A stretch of 64,000 nt of DNA from an uncultured delta proteobacterium (GCA_963733195.1 CAVTCR010000003.1:1-64000); one strand, 5' to 3'; positions 16,881 to 62,166 are shown, counted from the first letter of the stretch. The notes: generated from the letters alone by a model not told the origin. Program-made: numbers and translations.

Positions 16881-17072
16881 TTAGACTCTGTAACTTAACA
16901 GCGTTGAACAGCCTGCTCTTTGCCACATTGACCTCCTGGGACTGGTCCTTTATTCTCCCGGCACGGGCATTCAGGACAGAGGGTATCTAAATTGAATATT
17001 CCCGCTTATCAGGCAACGACAGGGGGTATTTATGCTCCTAATATCGAACAGAATTCCTACAGGAGGTTTGTA

Positions 17073-19625
17073 ATGTCGTTTTTGACCCTTGGAGTACGTA
17101 TCCTAGGCCGCAGTTGTACGTTTCCGCAGCTACGATGTGGCGGACAGCATGAGAACGCTTCGAGTTGCTGGCAACAGAGTTTCGTCGGGATAATTCGCAG
17201 TCTCCTCACATTTGCTCTGCTCTTGGTCGCGTCTGCTGCGTCGGCCAGCGAGATAGACCTCGTTTTGCCTGATCTGTCCACTGCCGAGTTCTTCGGGATG
17301 GAGGGTAATTCATTCCTCATGCTCGGCCTCCTTGTCTGCGTCGGTGGTATGATCTTCGGGTTGAAGATCTATAAAGAACTGGAAAACATGCCTGTGCATC
17401 GCTCGATGCGCGAGATTTCGGAACTGATTTACGAGACCTGTAAAACCTACCTGATCACCCAAGGAAAATTCATCCTTGTTCTCGAGGTGTTGATCGGCGC
17501 TATCATGGTTGTCTATTTCGGCTTCTTGGAGCACAACCCCGCCAGCCAAGTGCTGATCATCCTTTTCTTTAGCCTTGTCGGCATCGCCGGTAGCTATGGT
17601 GTCGCCTGGTTCGGTATCCGCATCAACACCTTTGCTAATTCGCGCACTGCGTTCGCCGCACTCGCCGGGAAGCCATTCCCCTGCTACTCCATCCCGCTTA
17701 AAGCAGGCATGAGCATCGGCATGCTTTTGATCAGCGTTGAGCTGTTCATCATGCTCTGCATTCTTCTCTTCATCCCAGGCGATATGCCGGGTCGTGCTTT
17801 ATCGGTTTTGCCATCGGTGAATCGCTCGGTGCTTCGGCCTTACGCATCGCCGGCGGTATTTTCACCAAGATCGCTGACATCGGCGCTGACCTGATGAAGA
17901 TCGTCTTCAAAATCAAAGAAGACGATGCGCGTAACCCTGGCGTGATCGCCGACTGTACCGGGGACAACGCCGGAGATTCCGTCGGTCCCAGCGCGGATGG
18001 CTTCGAGACGTATGGTGTTACAGGTGTCGCGCTCATCACTTTCATCCTCCTCGCCATCGAGCCTGAATATCAGGTGCTATTGCTCGTGTGGATCTTCATG
18101 ATGCGCATTGTCATGGTCATCGCCTCTGGGGCCTCATATGCTCTGAATGAAGCGATCGCGAAGGGGCGTTACGGCACTGTCGACCACATGAACTTTGAAG
18201 CGCCGTTGACACAACTGGTGTGGATCACTTCGATTGTCTCGGTCGTGCTGACTTACCTTGTGTCACTGGTGCTCATTGGCAACATGGGTGACGGCACGCT
18301 CTGGTGGAAGCTCTCCACGATTATCACCTGTGGCACCCTCGCCGGGGCAGTGATCCCGGAAGTGGTTAAGATCTTCACCTCAACCGAATCCGGCCACGTC
18401 CGCGAAGTCGTCACCGCCTCACGCGAAGGCGGAGCCTCACTGAATGTGCTCTCCGGCTTAACCGCGGGCAATTTCAGCGCCTATTGGATGGGTGTAGTAA
18501 TCGTCAGCCTGATGGGAATTGCGTACTTAGTGAGCGGCGAAGGGACTTGGGGTATTGATGAGGAGTTCGTTCTCTATCAACCCAGCCCCAGTCTTTGCCT
18601 TCGGTTTGGTCGCGTTTGGCTTTCTTGGGATGGGACCGGTAACGATTGCCGTCGATTCCTACGGTCCGGTGACCGACAATGCTCAGTCAGTCTACGAACT
18701 CTCGCTCATTGAGAATATCCCCGACATTAAGGAAGAGATCAGACGTGACTTCGGCTTCTTTCCAGAATTTGAAAAAGCTAAGCAGTACCTCGAAGAAAAC
18801 GATGGTGCAGGGAATACATTCAAAGCAACGGCAAAACCAGTGCTGATTGGCACGGCAGTAGTCGGTGCGACGACGATGATCTTCTCGATTATCGTCCTGC
18901 TCACGGGCCTAAGGGCAGAAAACATGGCGTTCCTGTCCTTGTTACATGCGCCGTTCCTTCTCGGTCTTATCAGTGGCGGAGCGGTGATCTTCTGGTTTGC
19001 TGGCGCGTCAACCCAAGCCGTGTCAACCGGTGCGTATCGCGCCGTCGAGTTTATAAAAAATAACATAAAGTTAGAGGGTGTCGAGAAAGCCTCGGTGGAA
19101 GACAGTAAAAAGGTAGTGGAGATTTGCACCCAATATGCGCAAGCCGGCATGATTAACATCTTTCTCACCATTTTCTTCAGTACCCTAGCCTTCGCCTGCT
19201 TAGAGCCGTATTTCTTCATCGGCTATTTAGTCTCAATTGCGCTCTTCGGTCTCTTCCAAGCCATCTTCATGGCGAATGCCGGTGGCGCGTGGGACAATGC
19301 CAAGAAGATCGTCGAGGTTGAACTCAAAGAAAAAGGGTCAGACCTCCATGCCGCCACTATCGTCGGCGATACCGTAGGTGATCCGTTCAAAGACACCTCG
19401 TCGGTGTCAATGAATCCGGTGATCAAGTTCACGACGCTCTTTGGCCTGTTGGCAGTCGAACTCGCCATTACAATGGACTCAGGAACGGCACACATGCTGG
19501 CGGGGTTGTTTTTCGTCGCCTCACTCGTTTTTGTGTGGCGGTCGTTCTACGGTATGCGGATTACTACAGAGAAAGGACACCAAAATGCGAGGGGTGAAGT
19601 GTCTACGGTCTCGCATTCCGCTTAA
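17073..19625 (+). CDS. hppA: Membrane-bound H+-translocating pyrophosphatase, K+-independent divergent type (apparent frameshifts near 17785 and 18570)
   Basis: [71 protein letters not shown]. Confidence 0.93.
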
Positions 19626-24128: not shown

Positions 24129-24337
24129 GAGGTCGGAAGATTCGTCCTGTCTACGGATAACGCAGTCAAAGGAGAATCTTCACATGTCGCATCACGTTGC
24201 GTACCAATAGAGCAGATTATAGTTGGGTTTACCCCGGATCTTATCCTCCCAGCACTTTCCAGTACGAGAACGCCCCCACTGGAAAACCTGAGGGCAGCGG
24301 CGCTAAGCTGTGGGCCGCTCGCCAAGGAGGGACCGAC

Positions 24338-26696
24338 ATGACGAGGAACGGTGCATTACAAGATCTCCGGGTTATCGATCTCACCGACGACACCGGACGC
24401 TTCGCCACTAAACTGCTCACCGAAGCCGGTGCCGATGTTGTCCGCCTCGGCCACGGCTCACCAGGGGTGCCAATGAGCGGGGACGCGGGTAAGCAGGGTG
24501 GTCTTCTTGACTGGTGGTACGACGGCGGGAAACAACGGCTCGCTCTTGACCTTGACTCCGTCGCAGGACAAGAGCATTTCGAAGCTCTTGCCGCACGGGC
24601 TGACCTCTTGATCGAGACCGAGCCTCCTGGACGACTCGCGCAACTGGGAATCGATTTCCCAGAGCTTCATAGACTCAACCCACGCTTGGTCCATGTTTCA
24701 CTCACTCCGTTCGGTCGCCAAGGGCCGCGAGCGCAGTGGCAGATGAGTGATCTCGTCGCTGCTGCTCTTGGTGGCGTATTGTCGATCACGGGCACACCAG
24801 ACGCACCACTCAATGGTTGGGGTAGACAATGTTTCAATACCGCTGGCCTTTTCGCCGCTATTTGCGGCTTGCAGGAGTGTACGCTGCACGAGCAACTGGC
24901 CGCGGCCAACATATTGATCTCTCACTCCAACAGTCTGTGATTGCCTGTACCGAACAGATGTTGATGTTCTGGTTCTTTCGCCAAAATGTTTCCTCTCGCT
25001 GTTGCCCCACGGCAAGCATCACTGCACTGGAGCGGTGCGTTCGAGGTTATGCGGTGCGCAGCTGGATACGCGATGGTTACTCCCGGTATGCATATGCCCA
25101 CGATGGTCGAATGGCTCGATAAAGATGGCATGGCCGGTGATCTCAAAGAGCTTGATCTCTCGGAGATGCTGAAGAGTTCTCCCGCACGTTCCGCATATCA
25201 TGGAGATCCTGCGGGCGTGGGCAGCTGACAAAAGATGCGCACGAATTGTTCCTTGGTGGGCAACAGCGACATCTCCCGTTCGGCGAAGTGCTGACTCGTT
25301 CCGGACATCAGTCAATAATGACCATTTTCAAGCGCGCGAATTTTTCCGCTCAGTGGACTGGAATGGTCCCACAGTGAAGATTCCAGGACCACTGTTCCGT
25401 ACAGAAGCTACTCCTGCACCGCCACCGCTGCCACCTGCGGCTACCCCTGTTGACCCTGCTACCGTGCTACAACGTTGGACGCCTCCACCAACACCAACCT
25501 TCCACCTCTACCGGACAAAAACCGCTCACTGGCATTCGCATATTAGACTTTACCTGGGTCCTCGCCGGTCCGTATTGTACGCGCGTGCTCGCTGATCTCG
25601 GTGCTGAGGTCATCAAGTTACAAACCGAAGAGCGCTCCCAAGGCGTCAACGGCAACGCCTTTCCCTATTTTGCACTGTGGAACCGCAACAAACGTAGTGT
25701 CAGTCTGAAGATGAAACATCCACAGGCGGTGGACATCTTTCGCCGCCTGGTCGAACAGGCCGATGTCATTGTTGAGAACTTCAGCGTCGGTGTGCTCGAA
25801 CGCTGGGGCATTGGCTATGACACCGTCCGCCAGTGGAACAACAAGATCATTTACATGAGTATGGCCGGTGCAGGCCAAAGTGGTCCGTGGCGCGACTTTG
25901 TCACCTATGCGCCGACGATTCACGCCTTGTGTGGCCTGACATATCTCACCAATCCGCCGGATCGACAGGACATTGGTCTCGGCTGTGCATATACCGACCA
26001 TCTCAGTGGCCTCTCCGGTGCACTGGCATTGCTCGAAGCACTGGAGGCACGCAGACGTACAGGCATCGGTCAACGGATTGATCTCTCACAATTGGAGGTC
26101 GGAGCATATCTGGTTGGCCCGTGCGTTCGCCGACCTGCTGAGCAACGGACGAGAAGCGCATCCACAGGGAAATCAGGATGCTTTCTGCGATTATGTGCCG
26201 AACAATGTCTATCGTTGCCTGAATAACGAATGGTTGGCACTCACTTGCTCGTGATGATTCTGAATGGAGTCGTCTATGTCAAGCAACCGGCCACCACACG
26301 CTTGCCAATGATACCCGCTTCGTCTCGGTTGAAGGGCGACGAGTGCAGCGAGCTGAAATCGATCATGCCATCGGCTCCTGGGCAGCGCAGCAAGACGCCG
26401 AACAAGCCATGCGTCAACTCCAAGCCGCAGGTATTCCCGCTGGTAAGGTTTGCACCATGCGTGATTTCACTGAACGTGACGAGCAACTCGCCGCACGGCA
26501 GTGGCTCGTCGAAGTCGAGAACAAACTCCTCGGTCGCCATCAACTGGAACGCTTTCCCGCTGTCTTTAGCGATGCAACGTTCGATTACACCCCAGCACCC
26601 TTCCTCGGCGAGCATAATTTCGAGGTGTATAAGGAGTTATTAGGAATGTCTGAGGAGGAAGTTGCAATTGCTATCGGCGACGGGCTGTTTACTTAA
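24338..26696 (+). CDS. Family III CoA-transferase (CaiB/BaiF), two domains fused; several apparent frameshifts
   Basis: LQDLRVIDL..LTEAGADV in domain 1. PLTGIRILDFTWVLAGPYCTRVLADLGAEVIK, NRNKRS and APFLGEHN in domain 2. Confidence 0.85.
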
Positions 26697-42716: not shown

Positions 42717-45700
42717 TGTTTTTTCCCTTTCTCATGCGTAAACCAACGGGTGTAACACGCACGAATCGCTTCCCGTTGTCGCTGATACTCAGCGAGGAGT
42801 CGGGCTGGCGCCTCCTCGCCTTCATATCCTAATCGGCGGGCAACAGAAAAGAGTTGCTCACCGCTGCTCTCCAACGCTTCGACAGGTTGGTCGCGTTCAA
42901 TCCGGAGACGGTTCTCTAGTGTCCGCAAAAACCGATACCCCTGAGTTAATAATTGAAAGTCCTCCGAAGGCAGTACCAGACTGGCCTGCAGCGCTTCAAG
43001 TGCTGGTAGCGTCGCCCGTTGTCGTATCGCTGGATACTGTGGGCCATAGCGCAATTGCAGCATTTGTACAAGGAACTCAATATCAACAATCCCACCACGA
43101 CCAGTCTTGATATTGAATCGTCCCTGTCCTTCTTGCGCGAGTTCTTGCTCCATACGGCCACGGAGGCGGTCAATTTCCGCCACTCCGGCAGAGTCAGTTC
43201 CCCCACTATACGCGAATCGCTCCAGTGCAGCTTCAATCTGGGGGTATAAGGCGGCATCACCAGCCACCATTCTTGCTTTAATCAGGGCCTGTCGCTCCCA
43301 CAATTGGGAGCTAGTTTCGTGATAACGCGTAAACGCTGCGAGTGAGGAGACAAGCGAGCCTGAGCGACCCGAAGGTCGCAGGCGAGTATCAATCTTGTAG
43401 ACGTATCCTTCGCGAGTCTGCACTTGGAGCACGGAAATCAGTCGTTGCGCTAACCGAGTGAAACACTCCTGTGCACCGAGCTGGCTAGTTTGGTCCTCTG
43501 CCGTTGGCTCATACAGAAAGATCAAGTCGAGGTCAGAATTATAGTTCAACTCCCCGGCTCCGAGCTTTCCCATGCCGATAATGGCTAGCCGTCCGGGAAG
43601 GACAGATAATTCAAGTTGTCGTAGGAGAGCAGTCTGCGCAATAGCAGAAGCCCCAACTAAACACGCTTCCGCCAACGCTGAGAGTTGGGCACTTGCTTCG
43701 GTGAAGTCGAGCAATCCATTACTATCATGAATACCGATACGTAAGAATTCCTCCGTCCGATAGCGCCGCAAGATGTCGAGCTGATCTTCGTATTCGTCCA
43801 CTTCTTCGAGGCGCGCATCAAGTTCAGTTTGCATTTCTTTGCGTGTCTTCTGTACGCGGACAAGGTCGGCCCGAACTAAGCTATCAAGTAACTCAGGGTG
43901 ACGGAGAAAAATCTGCGTCAGATACTCACTCGTCCCGAAGAGTCCAATCAACGTGCGCAACGTCGCGTCATTCTCACGGAGGAGCGAAAGAAAACTCGAC
44001 CGTGCACCAATAGACGCGATCAAATTCGCCATCGCCGCCAGCGCACGATCGGGATCGGCAGCACGGGACACTTCATGAAACAGTTTGGGAGCTAAAGCGT
44101 AGAGAAGCTTCCGTCGTTTCGGAGACGCCGGTGCATGAGGTGGTCCATCGTGGAGGAGCTTCAGGTGCTCGTAACTCTCCGGCAGATTACGAAAGCCAAG
44201 TTGTTGGAGATGCCACATCGCCCGCTCTTCCTGGCGTAACTCTTGCAAGAGAGACGGAATCCCCGGATCAAGCTCTTCCTGCGCTTCCTCAGGAGCATGA
44301 AACAACGAGTGAAATATCTGATGAACAGCATCGGTATGCGCATATAATACCGAGCGGAAGTGCGCAACTTCGTCTTTCTGAGGGTCAGGGGTCGGGGGTC
44401 GGAGGTCGGAGGTGTCTGAAAGTCCGGCGTCCGGCGTCCGGCGTCCGGCGTCGCCCGGAAGGTCCGCATTTTTTAAGCTTGATTTCTCTAATTCTGCATT
44501 CTGCATTCTGCCTGCCCCCTCCGTCGGGGGGCATTCTGCATTTTTTTCCAGGCGGAGCCGTCGCGCCAATGCTCGCAGTCCTTCCTCATCACTCGGGAGG
44601 GTATGCGTTTGCCGGTCCTGGACCACCTGCAGTTTATGCTCAACATGACGGAGAAAATGATACGCCTCACGAAGGACATCGCGGTCTGTTGCCGACAGAT
44701 ATTTCCCCTCAACTAAACGGTCGAGCGCAGGTAAAGTGCTCCGGTGACGAACATGCGGATCTTTCCCCGCATGAATTAGCTGGAGAGCTTGCGCGACAAA
44801 CTCAACTTCACGAATCCCGCCGCGGCCAAGTTTCACATTGAGCGCGGCACGGTCCCCGCTACGCAGTGCACGCTCAACACGGGCTTTCATCTCTTTAATG
44901 TCTTCAACCGTAGAAAAATCCAGATACCGACGAAACACAAACGGGGAGACCTCACGTAAGAATTGTTCGCCTAATGCAAGGCTCCCAGCAACGGGACGCG
45001 CCTTGAGGAGCGCTACACGTTCCCAGGTTTGCCCCCAGGATTCATAGTACAGCAGCGTATTAGGCAAGGAATTGACCATCGCACCATTCATACCATCCGG
45101 GCGAAGCCGTAAATCAACGCGAAATACACGGCCTCCGGCAACGAGATCACTTAAGGTTCGGGTCAGCCGTTGAGCCAGTTGGGTAAAAAAATTGCGTGGC
45201 TCAGTTTTTCCCTTGCTCCCACCAGTAGTCGGGCCGGCATCTTGTTCATATAAATAGATAAGGTCGATATCAGAACTGAAGTTCAGCTCCTCACCACCGA
45301 ATTTTCCCATGCCAAAGATAACAAAGCCGAGCGGACGGATCTGGCCGTTTTCCTCAACCACGGCCTCACCGTACTCCGCACGGAGGTGGGTACGCACATA
45401 TTCGTAAGCGATCTGGACAGCGGCTTCAGCCAGATGGCTCAGGTCTTGAACCGTATCCTCTAATGTCGCTTTTCCTAAAAGGTCCCGCGTCCCGATCCGA
45501 AGATACTCGCGGTTACGATACACCCGAAGACCACGAAGAAACTCTTCTTCTGAAAGGTCTAATGTAAGTTGCATCCGCAACGTCGCAAGATGATCTGCGA
45601 CCGACTTGACGGTGGAGGTATGATCCGAACAGAAAGCATCTTCCCACCCGGCTTCTTGATGCAAAAGCACGCCGGTCAGATGTTCACTCGCTCCGAGGAG

Positions 45701-52127: not shown

Positions 52128-52505
52128 TTAGTAGCGAGGAATTAGGAGATCCCACCAGGGGAAGTTCCCGGTCTGAGGATAGGAAGAACCACCATAGTAA
52201 CCGTTGTTAGGATAGTAAGAACCGCCATAGTAACCGTCGTTATAGCGCGGCTGGCTGTAGGTGCGGCGACGGTAATAGTCATCATCGTCATAGCGATTAT
52301 AGTAGCGATCGTTGTAACGCCCACGACTATAATAGGAACGATCACGGTTATAGTACGGGCGATTATAATAGGAGCGGTCGTAGTACGATTGACCGTAGCG
52401 TGGCTTACAGTGTTTGTATTTCTTGGCAAAGGCCGATGGGGTCAAGAGAAAAACTGCCATAAGGGGAACAATAAGGAAAAACAACTTTTTCATCTTGGTC
52501 TTCAT
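52128..52505 (-). CDS. Secreted low-complexity Tyr/Arg/Asp/Gly-rich protein
   Basis: GGAGG RBS; signal peptide MKKLFFLIV..SAFA; repeats YYDR/YYNR/GYYGGS. Confidence 0.7.
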   Translation of the reverse strand: MKTKMKKLFFLIVPLMAVFLLTPSAFAKKYKHCKPRYGQSYYDRSYYNRPYYNRDRSYYSRGRYNDRYYNRYDDDDYYRRRTYSQPRYNDGYYGGSYYPNNGYYGGSSYPQTGNFPWWDLLIPRY

Positions 52506-52636
52506 AACGACCTCCTTATGAAGGAGAAAAACACAAAACGCGTGCAGAAGTCGCGCATACAAACTCAGACCACCCGAATCCTGTGAGGGAAGGCTTTCTC
52601 TAGAATTGACTTCTTTTGTTCCCACCCATAGTAAGG

Positions 52637-53293
52637 ATGCGACTCGAAAGGAGTTTTTCCGTGCAAAGACCGAAGCGTGAGTCTGGAAATGAGGCGGAGT
52701 CCTTCCCCTGCGACGAATGCCTCTCCCCTCGAAGTCTGAGTCGCCGAAGCCTACTGAAATCTGTGCTTGGCGTGGGCCTCACGCTTTCCTTCGTCGAGCA
52801 GACTGCACATGCGCAGACCGATCCCAAGAAAGCACGGCCACAAGTAGGAGATCATTTCGTCTTTGCCCTGGGAGACCGTAGCGGGCAACTCATTACCCAG
52901 CAAGATGTGCAAATCGGTGGCCCACCGGTAACCGCATACCCAAAAGACCCTACTACCCAGATCGTGCGTGACGGATCACGGCTCAACCGCGTACTACTGG
53001 TTCGGCTGGCACCGGAGACACTCACTGAGCAGACGCGCACGGTCGCCGCTGAGGGCATCGTCGGGTATTCTGCGGTCTGCACACATACAGGATGCGACGT
53101 CGTGGGATGGGAAAATACGACGCAGCACCTAGTTTGCCCTTGTCACACCTCAGCCTTTGACGCGAAAGATCGGGCTCGGGTTGTCAGTGGCCCAGCACCA
53201 AAGTCACTCGCCGCGCTGCCGCTACAGGTCGTTGATGGCAAGCTCACCGTCGCAGGACCGTTTTCAGGCCGTGTCGGCGCTGAACAGAAATGA
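52637..53293 (+). CDS. Tat-exported Rieske [2Fe-2S] protein (start uncertain)
   Basis: SRRSLLK twin-arginine motif; CTHTGC and CPCH; GPAPKSL. Confidence 0.9.
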   Translation: MRLERSFSVQRPKRESGNEAESFPCDECLSPRSLSRRSLLKSVLGVGLTLSFVEQTAHAQTDPKKARPQVGDHFVFALGDRSGQLITQQDVQIGGPPVTAYPKDPTTQIVRDGSRLNRVLLVRLAPETLTEQTRTVAAEGIVGYSAVCTHTGCDVVGWENTTQHLVCPCHTSAFDAKDRARVVSGPAPKSLAALPLQVVDGKLTVAGPFSGRVGAEQK

Positions 53294-53302
53294 GGAGAGA
53301 CC

Positions 53303-55153
53303 ATGTCTCAGAGACTATGGAAGCATTTAGGAATCGAGTCATTGCGAGCGAAGCGAAGCAATCTCTGTCCTCAAAATAGATTGCTTCGTCGCCTCCAGCT
53401 CCTCGCAATGACACTTGTCCCTACTTTTCAAACCGGTGCGAAGACAATCACTTTTCTCACTGCCTTCGTCGTTAGCATATTCGCTAACCTAGCGTCCGCT
53501 CAACCCTTGAAGACATATCAACCTGTGACCAGTGAGCGGCTTTTGCATCCAGAACCGCAGAATTGGTTGATGTATCGTGGCACCTACGACAGTTGGGGTT
53601 ATAGCTCCCTAAACCAAATCAACCGCAAAAACGTGAGACGCTTAGTGCCAGTGTGGACATTTTCTACAGGCGTAGGGGAAGGTCATCAGTCTCCTCCTAT
53701 CGTTAATAACGGCATCATGTTCATCACCACGCCACAGAACCAAGTGCTCGCATTGGATGCGAAGACCGGCGACTTATTGTGGCGCTACAAACATGAGTTG
53801 CCAGAAGACCTGTTCCAACTCCATCCCACCAATCGTGGCGTTGCTTTGTATGGAGACAAGGTCTACCTGGCGACGGTTGACGCCCATCTGGTTGCCCTGA
53901 ATGCTCGTACCGGCGAGGTAGTGTGGGATCAGACAGTTGAGAAGTATCTCACCGGCTATTACATGACACTCGCTCCACTTGTTGTACGCGGCAAGGTCAT
54001 GGTCGGTGTGTCGGGAGGAGAGTTCGGCATTCGTGGCTTCGTACAAGCGTTTGATGCCGAGACTGGCCAATCTGCTTGGAAGACCTACACTGTCCCTGGC
54101 CCCGGCGAGCCTGGAAACGAAAGCTGGCCTGGGGATACGTGGAAGAACGGCGCGGTTCCCATATGGATCACTGGGAGTTATGACCCCCAGCTCAACCTTA
54201 CGTACTGGGGGACAGGAAACGCTGGACCGTTCATGGGAGAGACACGTTCGGGGGATAACCTGTACGCGAACTCCGTTATCGCTTTGGATGCTGATACTGG
54301 AGCGCTGAAAGCTCACCATCAGTATCACTGGAACGACTCATGGGATTGGGATGAAGTCTCTGCGCCGATTCTGCTCGATGTACAGCGCAATGGGCGCGCG
54401 ATCAAAGCGTTGGTGCATCCTGCCCGTAATGGCTATCTATGGCTCCTCGAACGCAGCGCCGACAAGATCACCTATGTCCATGCCGAACCATTCGTGAAGC
54501 AGAATGTCTTCACGAAGTTGGACCCCGAAACCGGACGACCAACATACAATCCCGAACGGATTCCAGGGATCGGTAAGCGCGCAGAATTTTGTCCATCGGT
54601 CTGGGGTGGAAAAGACTGGCCACCGGCAGCCTACAACCCAACGACAGGCTATCTCTATGTTCCTGCCAATGAAAATCTGTGTAGCGCCTTAAAAGGAAAC
54701 CCAGCGACGTACACACCGGGCCAGTTGTATATTGGTCTTGAAATTACGGATATCGAGCTTCTCCCGCAGAAGGGAGCGAAAGATCATATTGGTGAATTAC
54801 AAGCGTGGGATATGAACGCCGGAAAGAAAGTGTGGACGAAAACGTTCAAGTCTCACAATTGGGGACCTGTACTCACTACCGGTGGCGGACTCGTGTTTCT
54901 TGGTGGTACCAATGACCGCTACTTCCGTGCCTTTGATGCCAAGACCGGAAAGTTGTTATGGCAGCAACGCACCAACTCCGGCGTTACCGGGGTGCCGAGC
55001 ACATATCAAGTCGATGGCGTGCAGTACATCGCGGTCCAATCCGGCTGGGGTGTCGATGCCCAACGCAAACAAGAATTACTCGACAAAGCCTCTGGTACCA
55101 AGACGTTTGTCCCGCAAGGAGGAGTGCTGTGGGTGTTTGCGTTGGGGAAGTAA
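53303..55153 (+). CDS. PQQ-dependent dehydrogenase, methanol/ethanol superfamily, atypical clade
   Basis: Trp-docking repeats (ALDAKTGDLLW, AFDAETG), SGGEFGIRG, GTGN, WDWDE, GGKDW, YQVDGVQY. Confidence 0.92.
   Translation: MSQRLWKHLGIESLRAKRSNLCPQNRLLRRLQLLAMTLVPTFQTGAKTITFLTAFVVSIFANLASAQPLKTYQPVTSERLLHPEPQNWLMYRGTYDSWGYSSLNQINRKNVRRLVPVWTFSTGVGEGHQSPPIVNNGIMFITTPQNQVLALDAKTGDLLWRYKHELPEDLFQLHPTNRGVALYGDKVYLATVDAHLVALNARTGEVVWDQTVEKYLTGYYMTLAPLVVRGKVMVGVSGGEFGIRGFVQAFDAETGQSAWKTYTVPGPGEPGNESWPGDTWKNGAVPIWITGSYDPQLNLTYWGTGNAGPFMGETRSGDNLYANSVIALDADTGALKAHHQYHWNDSWDWDEVSAPILLDVQRNGRAIKALVHPARNGYLWLLERSADKITYVHAEPFVKQNVFTKLDPETGRPTYNPERIPGIGKRAEFCPSVWGGKDWPPAAYNPTTGYLYVPANENLCSALKGNPATYTPGQLYIGLEITDIELLPQKGAKDHIGELQAWDMNAGKKVWTKTFKSHNWGPVLTTGGGLVFLGGTNDRYFRAFDAKTGKLLWQQRTNSGVTGVPSTYQVDGVQYIAVQSGWGVDAQRKQELLDKASGTKTFVPQGGVLWVFALGK
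53338..53412. repeat. 75-bp palindromic element in frame in the PQQ dehydrogenase N-terminus
   Basis: gtcattgcgag..gaagcaatct..agattgcttc..ctcgcaatgac; same ends as 16622-16880. Confidence 0.85.
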
Positions 55154-55247
55154 AGCTGCATTCGACCATTGATGGGTCCGATCTTAGGGTCATTAAGCGC
55201 ACCCGCGCCTCTGCCGGGCTTGATCCACTTTATTTGATACTGCTTGA

Positions 55248-55823
55248 TCAGCGCAGCACGCCAGCGGCTTTTGCCGTGTGCGTCGCAATCGCATCCATCA
55301 ACGGCGGAGATAAACAATCATAGGGTTCGAGGCCAAGCTCTCTCACTCTGGCTCTGATCGCGCTCATGTCATTGGGGTTGGCTCCGGACTCGATAATAGA
55401 AGAAACAAAAGCCGCGAATTCCGGTGGTGCCCAACCTGCATCGGCTGAGAGTTCTGTGTGAATAAAATCCAAGCCGAAGAACGGATGCTTGTCGTTATCG
55501 ATGCGTCCGTACATGTGCACTCCGCACTCTTTGCAAGCGTAGCGTTTGATGACTGCGCTCGGATCCACGACTTTTAACTTGTCCTCATTAGCTGTCACTT
55601 TGAGGTTAACACGCGGCACCACTGCCACCTGCGAGAACAGCGCACCTGCTGGCTTCCAGCACTTGGTGCATCCACAGATGTGGTTATGAGCGCACTGGCC
55701 GGTAATCGCTACTGCGACCTTCTTGTTAGAGCAATGGCAGGATAGCGTCCCGCCCGCGAAGTTTGCTGCAGCAGGTTTCGCACCCTGATCGACCGCTGGA
55801 TGTATGGCAATAGTTTTGGACAT
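55248..55823 (-). CDS. gfa: Glutathione-dependent formaldehyde-activating enzyme
   Basis: [45 protein letters not shown]. Confidence 0.92.
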
Positions 55824-55989: not shown

Positions 55990-56595
55990 CTATGCTGCCG
56001 TGCTCGGACGCTGCTGTATCGCGTTATACCAGCGGTCGAGGTGCCTCCACGCTGGATCGAGCCTAAACTGCGACGCAGCAGCGAAGTCAATTCCGACAAA
56101 CAGTGTAATATCAGCAAGTGAGAACAGTCCGGCGACCCACTCGTGCTCTTTGAGCTGATTGTTGATCAGCGCCAGACGATTGCGCAGCACCTGTCCAGCC
56201 TCTTCTACCACCTTCGCGTTCTGCTCGACCCGTGTGGCAAAAAAGGGGTTGGAATGAAAGAACCGCCGAGTGGCCTGCAGGAACACCCCCAACTCACAGC
56301 GACGTTCCCATGCCCGTACCAGCGCCCGGCTCACCAGGTCTGTTCCCAACAGCGGCGGCTCCGGATGGAGTTCCTCGATGTACTCGATGATTGCCAGTGA
56401 CTCCGGGATCACAGTACCATCATCAAGCTCAAGAATGGGAACCGCCCCAAAAGGATTACGTTGTAAGAACTCGGGTGACTGCTGTTCTCTAGACAGTAGA
56501 TTCACCGGCTCTACTGGCACGGTCAGTCCCTTTTCAGCCAGATATATGCGCACTTTGCGACAGTTGGGTGATTGAGGAAAGTCGAAGAGTTTCAT
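55990..56595 (-). CDS. Glutathione S-transferase
   Basis: SPNCRKVRIYLAEKG, NPFGAVPIL, ESLAI, FSLADI. Confidence 0.9.
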   Translation of the reverse strand: MKLFDFPQSPNCRKVRIYLAEKGLTVPVEPVNLLSREQQSPEFLQRNPFGAVPILELDDGTVIPESLAIIEYIEELHPEPPLLGTDLVSRALVRAWERRCELGVFLQATRRFFHSNPFFATRVEQNAKVVEEAGQVLRNRLALINNQLKEHEWVAGLFSLADITLFVGIDFAAASQFRLDPAWRHLDRWYNAIQQRPSTAA

Positions 56596-56639
56596 CGTCG
56601 TCTTATCCTTTCCTGCCAGTGTGTCGTGCTGTGCCCAGG

Positions 56640-56900
56640 TCACGTGCCGTACTTCTTGGAAGGCTTCTCGCGCACGGCCAGCGGCGCGGTCGATGCGGTG
56701 ATGCCCTCCAATACTACCGACGGCAGCTTCCCAGCGCCTAAAACTTCCTTGGCGTCCAGAATCTCGATGCCCACGAGCTTTTCGCCCTTGCCGATATTGA
56801 GGGCAATTTCCTCGTTCAACCGCACAGTGCGGCACTCGTGCTTGCCTTCGATCAGGCGAATGTAGAGGGCGTCAATTTCGGAATCGTAGCTAATTCTCAT
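56640..56900 (-). CDS. DUF2283 family protein (antitoxin-like)
   Basis: MRISYDSEIDALYIRL..LVGIEILDA. Confidence 0.85.
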   Translation of the reverse strand: MRISYDSEIDALYIRLIEGKHECRTVRLNEEIALNIGKGEKLVGIEILDAKEVLGAGKLPSVVLEGITASTAPLAVREKPSKKYGT

Positions 56901-57409: not shown

Positions 57410-58681
57410 CTCTGCCCGCTCTCCTCCACCAGCTTGATTTCTTCAGGCGTCAGGTCGTAGAGCTTATACACAAGCTGGTCAATCTCCCGCTCCAGGGCCG
57501 ACACGTCCGCCACTGGCGTCGCGCTTGCTTAGCCGCCAACACCCGCTCCACCAAGCCCACCAATACCGCACGTTCCACAGGCGAGGCAGGCGGAATGGGA
57601 ATCTGTTCGACATACTGCGTCCAAAAGCGCAGATAGCCGCCCCGGATTTGGGCGCTCAGGTTGACGTAGAAGTGCTGGACCGCCTTCGCATTCAAAACGG
57701 CCAACAAATACAAATCAGCGGTGGCTGCGCAGTAGGCTGTGTTGCTGAAAAACGCGCCCTTCGTATCCAGGGCGAAGCGCAAATCGTTCGCGATGTCAGG
57801 GAAGATGATTTTCGGCTGAGCGTAGGCGGTGGTGAATTTCTCCTGCGGCTGCTGGAGTTCATACCACGCTTGCTCAGTGGCGCGGCCTTCGAGTTGTTTT
57901 CTGAATGGGCGGAGGTGGTCAAGCACGGCATCCAAGCCCTTCGTTGAAACGCCGTGAGGCATGTAGAGCATCCACTGATCGGGAGCTTCGCACACCCATT
58001 TGCGGACGTGCTTGCCGCCGAGGTAGGGCTTGATGATTCCGGCAGCCTTGGGCGACTCGGTAATGAGCGCGGCTCGTTGCAGTCCGTCGATGATGAAAGC
58101 TTCATTCAAGCCGCTCTTGATGCCCATGAAGATTTTGCCGTCGATGTGTTTGCCCAAAGGTGTGCCGGTGGCTTTCATTTTCTCCAGCAAGCGCAACGTT
58201 GCGGGGGATTCTAGCCGCCAAGCGAAGCCTTTCTGCGGTAATACTGTGGTTGGCAGATGGGCGAAGCGTGGCAGTTCGGCTTCGGTTCTGACGTTGAGCG
58301 TTTGAAAGTAATGGTTCTTCTCCGGCTGGCGGTTGCGGGCGATTACGATGCATGGGTAGGCGGTGGCCTTGAAGATGGGCAAGTCGCCAAAATCTATCAC
58401 TGCGCGCAACTCGGTCTTCGCCGCCAGGAATTCTCTGAGAGGCTCGCCGTAACCAGCGCGGAAGAACTTGTTGGAAGTGATGAAAGAAAGCACTCCGCCT
58501 CCGGCCAGCAGTTGGAAAGCGCAGGCGTAGAAGTAGCAATACAAGTCGGCCCGATCGCTGTGGACGTGGGGATAGCGGGCGCGGAGTCCCGGCTTGAGGT
58601 CTTTGAAAAGTTCCATCCGCACGTATGGTGGGTTGGCGATCACGACATCGAATCCACGCTTCTTGTCAAACACCTCTGAGA

Positions 58682-60137
58682 CTCGACTTTGGCCATTGTC
58701 AGATAGCAGGAGGGGGAAGTCTTCTCTAGGATAGAGTTGCTGTTCCACGGCAAACTCGCACTCTGGAGGTACTCCATGCCCTCACTGCCCGTTGAGATGA
58801 TAGTGCTGCTGGCCCCCTTTGCGCAACTCTTTGCGGACCGGGTCTGGCTGCACGCCCAGGTGCTCGTGGTTGGGGCGATTTTAGCGCCAGGCAAACGCAC
58901 GGTCAGTAGTTGCTTGCGGGTGATGGGGTTGAGCGGGGAGGCGCACTTTACCAACTATCATCGGGTGTTGAACCGTGCGCAGTGGTCGACGTTGCAAGTG
59001 GGGAAGATCATGCTGGGCCTGCTGGTGAGGGCCTTCGTGCCGCCGGGAGCTGTGATCGTGCTGGGGGCGGACGATACGGTGGAGCGGCGCAGCGGGCGCA
59101 AGATCAAGGCGAAGGGCTGTTATCGCGATGCCGTGCGGTCGTCCAAGAAGCACGTGGTGAAGTGTTTTGGGCTGAAGTGGGTGACAATGATGGTGTTAGT
59201 CCCAGTCCCCTGGGCGCAACGCGTGTGGGCGTTGCCCTTTTTGACCGTCCTGTGCTGGCCGCCCAAGTCGCGCCACAAGCGTCGGCACAAGAGTAGTGTG
59301 GACGGAGTCAGGCAGATGATGCAGCAAGTGCGGCGCTGGCTGCCGCAGCGGCTGCTCGTCTTGGTGGTCGATGGTGGGTTTGCCGCGGTGGCTTTAGCTT
59401 TGGCCTGCACCGCTAGTGAGGTGGTGATGGTGAGTCGCTTGCGGCTGGATGCGGCGCTCTACCACCCGCCCGAGCCCCGCCCGGCAAATGCGCCGGGGCG
59501 CAAGCCGACCAAGGGCCCGCGCCAACGGAGTCTGAAGGTCTGGGCGGCACGGACGGATACCCCCTGGGAGTCCGCGGTCGTCGACTGGTATCACGGGGAG
59601 CAGAAAACGCTACAGGTCTTCTCCCGTACGGCGCTGTGGTACACCTCGGGCTGGGCCCCGGTGGCGATTCGCTTTGTGTTGGTGCGCGATCCTGAAGGAC
59701 GGCTGGCGGATGCGGCCTTCTTCTGTACTGACCTCCAGGCTACCCCGATCCAGATCATCGAGTGGGTGGTAATGCGCTGGTCAGTTGAGGTGACATTTGA
59801 AGAGGCCCGCGCTCATCTGGGGCTGGAAACCCAACGTCAGTGGTCCGAGAAAGCGATTGCCCGAACCGCCCCCGTCCTGCTCGGCCTCTTTTCCCTGGTC
59901 ACGCTCCTGGCGCTGCGGTTCTGCCCCACCGGCCACATCCCAGTAGAGACCTCGGCGTGGTATCAAAAATCGACCGCCACCTTCACTGACTGTCTGACTT
60001 TGGTACGGCGCCATCTCTGGCGTGCTCGGTATTTGAACAACTCTGCTCTCCAAACCGACCTCGTGCAATTGTCGCGGGAAGCCTTCGAGTGCTTGCTGGC
60101 GGACCTCCCTCTAGCGGCCTAAATGGTCAAAGTTGAG
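58682..60137 (+). mobile_element. 1456-bp IS element (IS701-like) with 16-bp TIRs and a 5-bp TSD
   Basis: TIRs ctcgactttggccatt / aatggtcaaagttgag (14 of 16 match). TGAGA is duplicated at 58677-58681 and 60138-60142. Confidence 0.93.
58776..60122 (+). CDS. DDE transposase (IS701-like, DDE_5)
   Basis: GADDTVERR, VVDGGFA, RWSVEVTFEE; intact ORF with GGAGG RBS. Confidence 0.9.
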   Translation: MPSLPVEMIVLLAPFAQLFADRVWLHAQVLVVGAILAPGKRTVSSCLRVMGLSGEAHFTNYHRVLNRAQWSTLQVGKIMLGLLVRAFVPPGAVIVLGADDTVERRSGRKIKAKGCYRDAVRSSKKHVVKCFGLKWVTMMVLVPVPWAQRVWALPFLTVLCWPPKSRHKRRHKSSVDGVRQMMQQVRRWLPQRLLVLVVDGGFAAVALALACTASEVVMVSRLRLDAALYHPPEPRPANAPGRKPTKGPRQRSLKVWAARTDTPWESAVVDWYHGEQKTLQVFSRTALWYTSGWAPVAIRFVLVRDPEGRLADAAFFCTDLQATPIQIIEWVVMRWSVEVTFEEARAHLGLETQRQWSEKAIARTAPVLLGLFSLVTLLALRFCPTGHIPVETSAWYQKSTATFTDCLTLVRRHLWRARYLNNSALQTDLVQLSREAFECLLADLPLAA

Positions 60138-62166
60138 TGAGAAATAGACCTCGAAATCAAAGCTTACCTCATAGCCAAGGCTTCGCTTGGATGCAGCGAA
60201 GCACTCGATGAGTTTTTCATCAATCTGCTTCTTGAGCTTCGCTTTGGCGTCGTGGTCCGATTCGTCGAAGAACTGAAGTTTCAGTTTCTCGATCTCATAA
60301 AGCCTTTGAGATTTGAATGGGAAACCAATTAGCGAATTCCCCGCTACGATCTTGTAGTCCAGATTCGGCAGCGGCTTGATCTGCTTCACGTCTTCCTCGT
60401 CCACGACGAGCGAAAGCCAGAGGCGGAGCTTGGCGATCTCGACCGCGCCAGCGTCAATGTCCACGCCGTAGAGGCAGTTCTGGATGGCGTGGCGCTTGAA
60501 GTGGTAGGGCGTGCGTTCGTGAACGTCGTTGAAGTATGGAGTAAGCGCGGAGCGGGCGCGAACGATCTCGGTCATCATCCCCACCGGGAACGCGCCGGAC
60601 CCGACAGCGGGGTCGCAGATGGTAATCTCGGCCAGTTTTTCATCAATCAGCCGGGCGTGTTTCTCGATGCTCTTGGGCATCTTGATGCGATACTTCGTCT
60701 CGACCGCTTCGTAATGGGAGATTTGCTCGCCGAGATGGACGAACGTTTCGATGTCGGCACGGGGAACAACTTCCTCATACACCGTCGTCTTGAGTGCAGC
60801 TTGCTCCGGCTCGGGTTCGCCAAAAAGTTTGCTTGCTTCGGTTTTCCAGGACGAGGTTCGGCGGTGTTGAGGGCGGTATCGAGGTAGTTGATGAGGCTTT
60901 CCTGACACATGTAGTGGACGATCTCGCGCGGGGTGTAGAATGAGCCGAGACCTTTGCGGCGGTTTTCCTCGATCAGATTTTCAAAGACTTTGCCGAGCAT
61001 TTCGGGGTCAATCGCCACTTCTTTTTCCAGCGGCTCGGCTTCGTTGACGGTGAAGTTGTAGCGGTCAAACACGTCGAGCATGCCGGTGCCGGTAATGCCT
61101 TCCTCGACGAACTCGGTGTTGGTGAACAGTTTGTTGGGCAGGATGATGTCGGTCTTGCGCCAGTCGTAATCGCCGAGCGGCTCAAACAGGCCGCCGTTGA
61201 GGAACGGGATGCGGCATTTGAAACGGTTGCACCACGCTTCGTGGCCGCGGTCGGTGGCAAGCGTGTCGTAAAAGAGCGGTTCGAGGATGTCGTTGAAGAA
61301 ATTGTCGTATTTCCCGTACTCGCCATTGGCCAGCCGCCGCAGGAAGTCGCGCGGGCCGCTGCCCCAGTCCTGTCCCTTGGCGACGCCGAGCCAGCCTTTC
61401 TTCTGGAGGAAGTAGAGGAACACGATCTGGCCCATGAGTTTCTTGGCGAAGTCCACGGTGTTGACGCCCTTGGCCTGTGAACTCGCTCGCCGATGGTCTT
61501 GTCCTTGACGACCAGTTTTTCCAGCGCCTTGTGGATCTCCCCGAACAGCTCTGCGTATTTTTTGAAGAATTCTTTGGTGACGGCCTCGACGCTGAACGCC
61601 TCTTCGATGTCCGCCAGCGCCGGGTCAGTCTCAGTATCTTGAAGCAAATCGAGAAATCGGGTCTGCGCGGTGTGGCAACTTTCGCCTTCGCCGACGATGT
61701 AGGAAAAACGCCGCGCCGGAGTGAGGCGCGTTTCCACACCAACTTTGCCGGAGTCTTTTTCGACGGTGGCGTATTCCATTTTGACGTAGGAGAACCGCCA
61801 CGTCGTTTCCGAAGGCGAGACGAACGCCACGAGGGCGGCATCCTTTTCGTCGCGGGTCTTGAGGTGGTCGGCCACGAAGTTGCGGATGGCGGTGCGGGCC
61901 CGTTCCAGTTTGGACTCATTGGTGAGGTGGACAATCAGAACGTCGAGCTTCTCCTTTTCGGGCGACGTGTACGTGCCGAGGCGCTCGTAGCGTTGGACGT
62001 GGTCCTTGAAGGCATCCTTCACGTACTGGCTGTTCCATGACGCTGCCTTGGACTCATCTACGTGGTTGAGAAGATTCTGGCTGAAGTGAGAGAAACGGTT
62101 CTTGTCGAACGCATGGGTGAATGTCTGACGAATGAGATTGACTGCCTGTTTCTTGTCCATGATTAT

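Follow-up and report, generated by a model that had tools for sequence, protein, structure and literature searches.

A PQQ-dependent dehydrogenase without the vicinal Cys-Cys ring and the Rieske protein encoded beside it, its probable electron acceptor

A vicinal Cys-Cys disulfide ring next to the PQQ is considered characteristic of the PQQ-dependent alcohol and methanol dehydrogenases and as their route for electrons to cytochrome c, the acceptor of the studied relatives being cytochrome cL, XoxG or c550. To our knowledge, all characterised periplasmic members pass their electrons to haem, carried by a separate cytochrome c or by a domain fused to the enzyme. We analysed 64,000 nt from an uncultured delta proteobacterium (GCA_963733195.1 CAVTCR010000003.1:1-64000; this whole stretch is called the window, and positions are counted from its first letter), in which the gene for a dehydrogenase of this family lacking the ring follows a gene for a Rieske [2Fe-2S] protein.

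The structures 6ZCV and 6ZCW, titled "Quinoprotein ethanol dehydrogenase" and which we take to be PedH / ExaF, resemble the window enzyme in the eight-bladed PQQ propeller (E 1e-109), in the Glu, Asn and catalytic Asp, in the extra Asp and in their periplasmic location. Unlike them, the window enzyme has a His-Pro-Thr loop with a one-residue deletion and no Cys-Cys, its gene is linked to a Rieske gene and to none for the cytochrome c-550 PedF, and it falls in a clade separate from the PedF-linked enzymes. The XoxF-XoxG and MxaFI-MxaG systems likewise pair a periplasmic PQQ enzyme with a one-electron acceptor of its own, encoded alongside, and XoxF (4MAE, 6DAM) shares the Asp-x-Asp arrangement; the putative acceptor in the window is an iron-sulfur protein and not a haem protein, and neither xoxJ nor xoxG is present. 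In AioAB, a Tat-exported Rieske protein of the disulfide type takes electrons from the catalytic subunit in the periplasm and delivers them to soluble acceptors. The window pair would work alike, and AioB is a detectable relative of the window Rieske protein (E about 6e-08), but this sequence similarity is weak and AioB works with a molybdoenzyme carrying a 3Fe-4S cluster where the window has a quinoprotein.

Candidate type 6a enzymes (Keltjens) are two Cys-less dehydrogenases encoded on plasmid pMaq22A_1p of Methylobacterium aquaticum 22A, which share 62% and 52% identity with the window enzyme and whose genes each follow a Rieske gene; one of the two enzymes groups within the window-enzyme clade in a tree built without the Keltjens reference set. 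Solely from positions that fit the locus-tag numbers, we infer that the two ORFs are Adh4 and Adh6, which are type 6a members. In the papers on this type, Cys-Cys is described as missing in some type 6a members (PMC8561711), type 6a enzymes are called uncharacterised (PMC7356819), and the word Rieske has no occurrence (both papers). Full-text literature searches returned no statement of a link between Rieske proteins and PQQ dehydrogenases, although supplementary tables might still list the neighbour, and look-ups of the terms in PMC11996626, PMC10875860, bioRxiv 10.64898/2026.07.10.737718, PMC7356819, PMC8561711 and PMC10715153 found none.

The Rieske gene, the spacer and the dehydrogenase gene

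The Rieske gene was assigned by Pfam PF00355 and by its match to 1NYK (E 1e-34). Its longest ORF (52616..53293, plus strand) encodes 225 aa, and the probable start is the GTG at 52661, before which we read a GGAG at 52650-52653. A Tat signal read from the translation (52742..52813, plus strand) comprises R43-R44 within SRRSLLK, a short hydrophobic core and a cleavage-type site between AHA and Q; both arginines are invariant across the 31 Rieske orthologues of alignment A2, and an RR motif is present in 75/78 orthologues. This signal implies a soluble, periplasmic protein predicted to have no membrane anchor. A CxxC motif in the Tat n-region (PCDEC here) was considered as a family feature and dropped, only 12 of 78 orthologues having one. 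Further along, the cluster boxes C155-T-H157-T-G-C160 and C174-P-C176-H177 (53078..53146, plus strand) were located from A2, from the 1NYK alignment and from the predicted interface. C155, H157, C160, C174, C176 and H177 are all invariant in A2, and CTHTGC/CPCH align with CTHLGC/CPCH of 1NYK, so that none of the four cluster ligands or the two disulfide cysteines is missing, which places the protein in the disulfide-bearing (bc1/b6f/AioB) type.

The nearest solved relative is the Thermus thermophilus Rieske protein (1NYK, 3FOU; match over residues 70-223), with which the window protein has the cluster boxes and disulfide in common. The Thermus protein forms part of a quinol-cytochrome c reductase, whereas the window protein carries a cleavable-looking Tat signal and its gene has no apparent cytochrome b neighbour. 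The two also differ in an SRLN motif at the predicted dehydrogenase interface, which is specific to the clade and nearly invariant in window-type Rieske proteins. We considered and rejected a respiratory bc1/b6f Rieske subunit on the Tat signal with its AHA site, on the lack of a cytochrome b neighbour and on the best NCBIfam match, QcrA, which scored below cut-off (111.6 bits against 275). The window copy is the only close copy of the Rieske gene in its own genome.

Between the two genes lies a palindromic dispersed repeat (53335..53416, plus strand), identified by folding and by genome matches, which forms a REP-like hairpin (-37 kcal/mol, z -4.83) and has 47 matches in its own genome with both strands counted (about 40 copies). 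The earlier note had given a gap of 9 nt between the genes; this figure holds for the longest ORF only and is an artefact, because that ORF adds the repeat to the N-terminus of the dehydrogenase. The spacer is probably ~114 nt long, counted from the likely ATG start at 53408. Many unrelated RNA-library contigs match 53378-53414 alone. Stretches of the dehydrogenase gene and the 5' portion of the Rieske gene are matched by other short RNA-library contigs with 0-4 differences (4 runs from 3 studies; such libraries can contain DNA); none in these runs bridges the two genes, and the uncovered parts carry no meaning.

The dehydrogenase (longest ORF 53303..55153, plus strand, 616 aa) belongs to the methanol/ethanol family of PQQ-dependent dehydrogenases, with 598.5 bits against TIGR03075 (cut-off 480.05), 286 bits against PF01011 and E 1e-109 against 6ZCV. 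Its probable start at 53408 corresponds to M36 and is followed by a Sec-type signal ending with ASA before Q at residue 66; homologues are ~572 aa long and most begin about 35-44 codons after the longest-ORF start. In place of the Cys-Cys ring, the alignment to 6ZCV shows the loop E165-G179 (ELPEDLFQLHPTNRG; 53795..53839, plus strand), the docking site for the Rieske cluster loops in the complex model described below. Here LFQL-HPTNRG aligns with IRPCCDVINRG of the PedH-type 6ZCV, both cysteines being absent and the loop one residue shorter, and L166, P167, D169, H174, P175, T176, N177, R178 and G179 are invariant in alignment A1 of dehydrogenase homologues. The vicinal Cys-Cys is missing throughout the clade of the window enzyme.

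The metal ligands were located by alignment to 6ZCV and 4MAE: Glu240 in GGEFG (54020..54022, plus strand) is nearly invariant in A1, and Asn306 in GTGN (54218..54220, plus strand) is invariant, as is Asp348-Trp-Asp350 (54344..54352, plus strand), comprising the catalytic Asp and a lanthanide-type Asp. WDWDE aligns with WDFDG of 6ZCV and with WDYDG of XoxF (4MAE and 6DAM), the second Asp at the lanthanide ligand of PedH and XoxF, and lanthanide dependence of the window enzyme is predicted from this. The genome can make PQQ, since it encodes the synthesis genes pqqC (328 bits) and pqqE (518 bits). The earlier note had read from the DNA a Tat Rieske gene with extra disulfide cysteines, a dehydrogenase that keeps the Glu and Asn ligands without the Cys-Cys, and a lanthanide-type Asp, and the Pfam assignment, the translation and the alignments to 1NYK, 6ZCV and 4MAE agree with it on all of these. 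A XoxF methanol dehydrogenase was rejected as an identification: the window enzyme branches off from the XoxF-like paralogues of its own genome (in a tree without named XoxF references), and no cytochrome gene lies nearby. These paralogues have Cys-Cys and WDYDG, and no Rieske neighbour.

Conservation of the pairing

We drew 80 loci of Cys-less dehydrogenase homologues from genome contigs, spanning Rokubacteria, Binatia, Bryobacterales, Thermoanaerobaculia, Entotheonella and many Gammaproteobacteria. A Rieske homologue lies upstream on the same strand at 74/80 of them, a count that gauges conservation inside the clade and not frequency among all PQQ enzymes, the loci having been selected by patterns including HPTNRG. 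The pairing foreseen in the earlier note for homologues without the Cys-Cys is thus conserved. HPTNRG occurs in all clade members, and WDWDE in all but one (L051, with FDWDE, which keeps Asp-x-Asp). As a control, 27 loci of Cys-Cys PQQ alcohol dehydrogenases were taken from 40 relatives, and none has a Rieske gene within 1.5 kb, while the two HPTNRG loci in the same sample of 40 both have one; none of the three dehydrogenase paralogues in the window's own genome has a Rieske neighbour. Two of three Cys-Cys enzymes at 40-42% identity lack a Rieske gene and have the gene for PedF (cytochrome c-550) nearby.

At five of the 80 loci (L031, L060, L080, L082 and L089) a Rieske gene is absent within 5 kb; three of these five genomes have a homologue elsewhere, with no second dehydrogenase beside it in 3.5-kb loci, and two have none. 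A sixth locus without a nearby Rieske gene (L017) offers only ~1 kb of upstream sequence and is uninformative.

The phylogeny, rooted with own-genome paralogues and plasmid genes as outgroups and containing no named XoxF, MxaF or ExaA references, groups the Cys-less Rieske-linked enzymes as one clade (SH-aLRT 99). In Alteromonas macleodii pTE101a and Paracoccus alcaliphilus, the Rieske gene follows the gene for a Cys-less dehydrogenase of 48% identity, so the link outlives rearrangement, the sister clade retaining it with the gene order reversed. Two observations limit what the pairing entails. Deinococcus aetherius has a Cys-Cys-containing enzyme with a Rieske neighbour gene, and therefore loss of the Cys-Cys is not required for the pairing and the two do not correspond one to one. 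The Rieske-linked group also includes Asp-x-Ala (Ca-type) enzymes, and therefore the pairing as such does not imply lanthanide use.

The pair is often plasmid-borne and is found in unrelated phyla, as would be expected if it were a mobile cassette, or if the adjacency were driven by expression with no physical or redox interaction between the products. We regard this as very improbable, given that adjacency persists to 48% identity and through the reversal of gene order, that the Cys-Cys paralogues scored 0/27 and that the complex model is strong relative to its controls.

Other genes at the locus

Downstream of the dehydrogenase by 95 nt, and convergent with it, lies gfa, encoding S-(hydroxymethyl)glutathione synthase (55248..55823, minus strand; TIGR02820, 331.7 bits, cut-off 234.55), followed by a glutathione S-transferase gene (55990..56835, minus strand; GST_N and GST_C domains from residue 80, probable start M81 at ~56595). 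The earlier note had linked both to the dehydrogenase and had suggested a formaldehyde-releasing substrate, which amounts to a lanthanide enzyme for methanol or a formaldehyde releaser that is functionally tied to gfa and GST. The gfa gene is bona fide and its position fits, and methanol is a frequent in vitro substrate of lanthanide-type PQQ enzymes. Against this, neither gfa nor GST occurs within 5 kb of the dehydrogenase homologue at any of the 80 loci, including that of a 91%-identical relative (L012), an outcome that the earlier note had itself counted, for gfa, as refuting its reading, and in the window the two genes border a restriction-modification region split by a transposase. Neighbours that hint at the chemistry elsewhere encode an aldehyde dehydrogenase or oxidase (Azoarcus, Paracoccus, Roseomonas), and PMC7356819 attributes methanol growth of M. 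aquaticum 22A to MxaF and XoxF1 alone. We consider a formaldehyde-related function improbable, and gfa and GST, which stand outside the module, are unrelated chance neighbours of the Rieske-dehydrogenase pair. The tempting but unsupported tie of the window to formaldehyde metabolism is thereby removed.

Clustering of the flanking ORFs of the 80 loci revealed no universally conserved further neighbour. It gave only families confined to a sublineage: the di-haem CCP/MauG type discussed below (17 loci), a Tat-signal protein of glyoxalase fold (11 loci), a YtkA-like protein (11 loci) and a dicarboxylate symporter (10 loci).

Predicted complex and proposed electron route

We modelled the complex of the Rieske protein and the dehydrogenase, the structure prediction proposed in the earlier note, and obtained direct docking at the Cys-less loop with ipSAE values of 0.86, 0.88 and 0.86, the best of three controls reaching 0.00 (these are model confidences, not measurements). 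Partner pLDDT was at least 91 and contacts agreed between runs by at least 83%. This level is attained by 116/157 solved complexes and 2/215 mismatched pairs, counts that are only approximate here since custom alignments and a riding 2Fe-2S were used. In the model, dehydrogenase residues 165-173 and 175 face Rieske residues 154-161 and 173-178, which sets the cluster loops of the Rieske protein on the loop replacing the Cys-Cys ring. At the interface, D169 of the dehydrogenase is invariant, and R122, L123 and N124 of the Rieske protein are nearly invariant in the family.

From these observations, the Rieske protein is probably the one-electron acceptor of the dehydrogenase in place of cytochrome c. 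The Sec-exported PQQ enzyme would oxidise an alcohol or aldehyde, its His-containing loop occupying the position of the Cys-Cys ring. The Tat-exported soluble Rieske protein would dock on this loop, over the PQQ pocket, through its cluster-binding loops, and accept the two electrons of PQQH2 singly, the role played elsewhere by cytochrome cL, XoxG or c550, before handing them to a periplasmic acceptor. We put at roughly 70% the probability that the two genes form a redox module in which a PQQ enzyme with predicted lanthanide-type ligands hands electrons to a docked Rieske protein and to which gfa and GST are unrelated; it is its electron transfer, lanthanide use, substrate and downstream acceptor that we infer. 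The Rieske-coupled lanthanide quinoprotein of the earlier note is thus supported as far as the pairing, the docking model and the Asp go, with the refinements that Cys-Cys loss and Rieske linkage do not go one to one and that the linked group includes Ca-type members.

The dehydrogenase might instead reduce a c-type cytochrome or cupredoxin encoded at a distance, with the Rieske protein as a bound small subunit of structural, maturation or sensing function. A dedicated partner gene need not adjoin, a di-haem CCP/MauG-type gene lies nearby at 17/80 loci (all in one gammaproteobacterial sublineage), and the Deinococcus enzyme has its Rieske neighbour despite an intact Cys-Cys. We nonetheless judge this unlikely: the model places the cluster-binding loops, and no other face, on the active-site loop, the cluster ligands are invariant in all 31 orthologues, and the ring that leads to cytochrome c in this family is missing. 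Moreover, 55/80 loci have no ORF with a CxxCH motif within 5 kb, and in the window no ORF of at least 70 aa has one between positions 44000 and 64000, in keeping with the earlier observation that no cytochrome c gene is adjacent.

Reduction of the Rieske protein by the dehydrogenase would, if true, constitute a second, previously undescribed electron exit from quinoproteins, from PQQ to a Rieske cluster. We further lean, with somewhat less assurance, towards a clade of PQQ dehydrogenases spanning phyla that uses a dedicated soluble Rieske protein and not cytochrome c, and in which Asp-x-Asp and Asp-x-Ala versions can coexist in one organism, as they do on the M. aquaticum 22A plasmid with its two Rieske-linked copies; such coexistence would resemble the metal switch of MxaF/XoxF and PedE/PedH. 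Genes that soil and ocean surveys take for "XoxF-like" or lanthanide-type would then be read differently. Cultured carriers make the system testable, namely M. aquaticum 22A (pMaq22A_1p), Azoarcus sp. KH32C (pAZKH), Roseomonas marmotae (p1318-3), Alteromonas macleodii Te101 and Paracoccus alcaliphilus; for M. aquaticum 22A, mutants deleted for adh4 and adh6 and strains retaining a single gene are already at hand (PMC7356819). Among one-genome-per-species contigs, we confirmed at least 694 stretches of the clade, which is common in Binatia, Rokubacteria, Acidobacteria, SAR86, Porticoccaceae and Pseudohongiella.

Sequence features and start sites of the gene pair

The Rieske ORF (52616-53293, + strand; Pfam PF00355) lies upstream of the PQQ dehydrogenase ORF (53303-55153, + strand; TIGR03075, 598.5 bits for a cut-off of 480; PF01011), and two convergent genes follow on the - strand: gfa (55248-55823; TIGR02820, 331.7 bits for a cut-off of 234.55) and a GST gene (55990-56835; GST_N and GST_C domains). 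No CxxCH motif was found in any ORF of at least 70 aa between 44000 and 64000, in line with the earlier note's statement that no cytochrome c gene is adjacent.

The nearest solved structures of the dehydrogenase were the quinoprotein ethanol dehydrogenase entries 6ZCV and 6ZCW (E 1e-109), which we take to be of PedH type, followed by XoxF 4MAE and 6DAM. The alignments to these structures bore out the residues read from the sequence: 'LFQL-HPTNRG' stands opposite 'IRPCCDVINRG', with neither cysteine present and a one-residue deletion; 'GGEFG' and 'GTGN' match the Glu and Asn metal ligands; and 'WDWDE' stands opposite 'WDFDG' and 'WDYDG', so that its second Asp aligns to the lanthanide ligand. 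We infer lanthanide use by the enzyme. Both HPTNRG and WDWDE were invariant in 14 aligned members, and pqqC and pqqE are encoded in the same genome.

The 9-nt gap between the two genes in the earlier note holds for the longest ORF only. Most dehydrogenase homologues are about 572 aa long and start 35-44 codons downstream of the longest-ORF start, with a Sec-type signal. A hairpin at 53335-53416 (-37 kcal/mol, z -4.83) is a dispersed repeat with about 40 genome copies (47 matches, both strands counted), and many unrelated metatranscriptome contigs match 53378-53414 only, the repeat's 3' arm, at high depth. Judged by the hairpin, its dispersed copies and these partial contig matches, the apparent N-terminal extension is an intergenic REP-like palindromic element translated in frame, which adds about 35 codons to the ORF. 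Translation probably starts at ATG 53408, leaving about 114 nt between it and the Rieske gene; ATG 53303, with GGAGAG directly upstream, may serve as an alternative start. The same false extension is present in database protein P0001.

For the Rieske protein, the nearest solved relative was the Thermus respiratory Rieske protein 1NYK (E 1e-34), with which it shares, in alignment, both cluster boxes and both disulfide cysteines. Its N-terminus combines a twin-arginine SRRSLLK with a short hydrophobic segment and an AHA|Q site, so it reads as a soluble periplasmic protein with a cleaved Tat signal; the best Shine-Dalgarno sequence is at GTG 52661. In 31 orthologues neither the twin arginines nor any of the four ligands or two disulfide cysteines varied, and an SRLN motif was nearly invariant; the RR motif was present in 75 of 78 orthologues. 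A Cys-x-x-Cys (or CPC/CC) in the n-region of the Tat signal (PCDEC, 52700-52715) was seen in 12 of these 78, from several phyla. Box II, CPCHTSAF, keeps the Ser and has Phe at the position of the hydrogen-bonding Tyr of bc1 Rieske proteins. In the light of mutational work, this points to a potential in the intermediate to high range, which would be thermodynamically suitable. The genome has a single close Rieske copy. The only other Rieske-like match (31% identity; locus L137, contig C12, 58359-58550) is preceded by genes for a molybdopterin oxidoreductase (a fragment) and a 4Fe-4S subunit, and its product has an N-terminal membrane-anchor-like segment.

Conservation and phylogeny of the Rieske link

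Close relatives of the dehydrogenase number in the thousands, and the 120 listed were all at least 68% identical. A pattern scan using one genome per species yielded at least 716 matches and at least 694 confirmed relatives, from which 80 loci were kept. In 74 of the 80, a homologue of the Rieske gene preceded the dehydrogenase gene in the same orientation, so the pairing, which the earlier note had proposed to check in Cys-less homologues, is conserved. The six other loci include L017, with only about 1 kb of upstream sequence (the Rieske gene of its closest relatives is about 1.4 kb away), and L031, whose dehydrogenase is frameshifted. Five genomes without a nearby Rieske gene were informative: three encode a homologue elsewhere (49-51% identity) and in two none was found. 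In a control sample of 40 relatives, a Rieske gene was found within 1.5 kb at none of the 27 loci of Cys-Cys PQQ dehydrogenases and at both HPTNRG loci. The three full paralogues in the window's own genome have the Cys-Cys pair and WDYD, and no Rieske gene.

A protein search of plasmids brought up wider relatives in cultured carriers. An upstream Rieske gene was found in Roseomonas marmotae (dehydrogenase identity 65.9%), Azoarcus sp. KH32C (61.2%) and M. aquaticum 22A (60.5%). Alteromonas macleodii Te101 and Paracoccus alcaliphilus (48%) have Cys-less enzymes with the calcium-type Asp-x-Ala; their Rieske gene lies downstream, and behind it comes a conserved gene (about 150 aa; L098, 5994-6455; L099, 5944-6390) whose product had no Pfam match. 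Enzymes at 40-42% identity have Cys-Cys and no Rieske gene, and in Azospirillum and Novosphingobium a gene for the PedF cytochrome c-550 lies close by. In a quick IQ-TREE of 30 sequences, all Cys-less Rieske-linked enzymes formed one clade (SH-aLRT 99). The enzyme of Deinococcus aetherius (L100, pDAETH-2) branched immediately outside that clade (support 83); the PedF-linked enzymes lay further out. This Deinococcus enzyme has Cys-Cys and WDYDG and a Rieske gene directly upstream, and on this evidence the Rieske link may be older than the loss of the disulfide.

Plasmid pMaq22A_1p of M. aquaticum 22A carries two Rieske-linked dehydrogenases (L139, 144084-145799; L095/L138, 449317-450984), one HPTNRG/WDWDE and the other, also Cys-less, FHYTNRG/WDWAA, so this strain has both the Asp-x-Asp and the Asp-x-Ala versions. 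The two copies may be a lanthanide enzyme and its calcium counterpart, in analogy to XoxF and MxaF. Their coordinates are compatible with locus tags 1p32165 and 1p30675, which makes them putatively Adh4 and Adh6.

Full-text literature searches, with term look-ups in the main text of selected papers, found no link between Rieske proteins and PQQ dehydrogenases. PMC8561711 describes some minor members of groups including 'type 6a' as lacking Cys-Cys; in PMC7356819, type 6a is uncharacterised and MxaF and XoxF1 alone are credited with methanol growth.

Modelled complex and proposed electron transfer

The mature dehydrogenase and Rieske chains were co-folded with their own alignments and a 2Fe-2S cluster. 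The complex reached an ipSAE of 0.86, 0.88 and 0.86 (best of three controls, 0.00); the partner pLDDT was 91 or higher, and 83% or more of the contacts recurred between runs. In benchmarking, 116 of 157 solved complexes and 2 of 215 mismatched pairs reached the ipSAE mark, counts that apply only roughly to a model with own alignments and a riding ligand. The predicted interface involves dehydrogenase residues 165-173 and 175, the loop in place of the Cys-Cys ring, and Rieske residues 154-161 and 173-178, that is both cluster boxes with both His ligands, together with residues 121-123 of the SRLN motif. It is, as modelled, the interface predicted if the Rieske protein is the acceptor, and the model supports rather than demonstrates binding of the two proteins. 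To our knowledge no Rieske-quinoprotein complex has been solved, and a score owed to a memorised structure is therefore unlikely.

Comparison of loci and the complex model thus make the Rieske protein a well-supported candidate for the dehydrogenase's electron acceptor. The cluster would dock over the active-site funnel and reoxidise PQQH2 in two one-electron steps, and the reduced Rieske protein would then hand electrons on to an oxidase or to a soluble carrier in the periplasm, by analogy with AioB of arsenite oxidase. In 17 loci of one gammaproteobacterial sublineage (among L044-L088; e.g. L049, 4230-5513, - strand) the opposite strand carries, 0.5-3 kb downstream, a gene of the di-haem cytochrome c peroxidase/MauG family. 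Genes for a Tat-signal glyoxalase-fold protein and a YtkA-like protein often accompany it. The di-haem protein may be the next electron carrier, or unrelated.

Substrate and neighbouring genes

The earlier note's lanthanide quinoprotein passing electrons to a Rieske protein is strengthened as to the acceptor, with metal use and the transfer itself still inferred; its formaldehyde-releasing substrate, drawn from gfa and GST, is not supported. Neither gene occurred at any of the 80 homologous loci, L012 (91% identical) among them. Both are real genes and chance neighbours, adjoining an Eco57I/MmeI-type restriction-modification methylase gene (pieces at 57450-62160, - strand) split by a DDE_5 transposase gene (58737-60122, + strand). 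In other carriers, those neighbours that suggest a chemistry encode aldehyde-oxidising enzymes: Azoarcus and Paracoccus have aldA, and Roseomonas has an enzyme of the molybdenum aldehyde-oxidase type. This would fit an alcohol-to-acid route and not C1 metabolism.

Divergent from the Rieske gene, 52128-52625 (- strand) encodes a small secreted protein with YYNR-type repeats and a high content of Tyr, Arg, Asp and Asn. Neither Pfam nor NCBIfam gave a match for it, and L012 is the only other locus with a homologue, at the equivalent position. Elsewhere in the window, an H+-pyrophosphatase spans three consecutive ORFs (16992-19625, + strand; profile positions 3-137, 182-382 and 375-644), which indicates frameshifts or assembly errors, and two neighbouring ORFs (24197-24940 and 25450-26226, + strand) are partial family III CoA-transferases, each matching the first half of the profile only.
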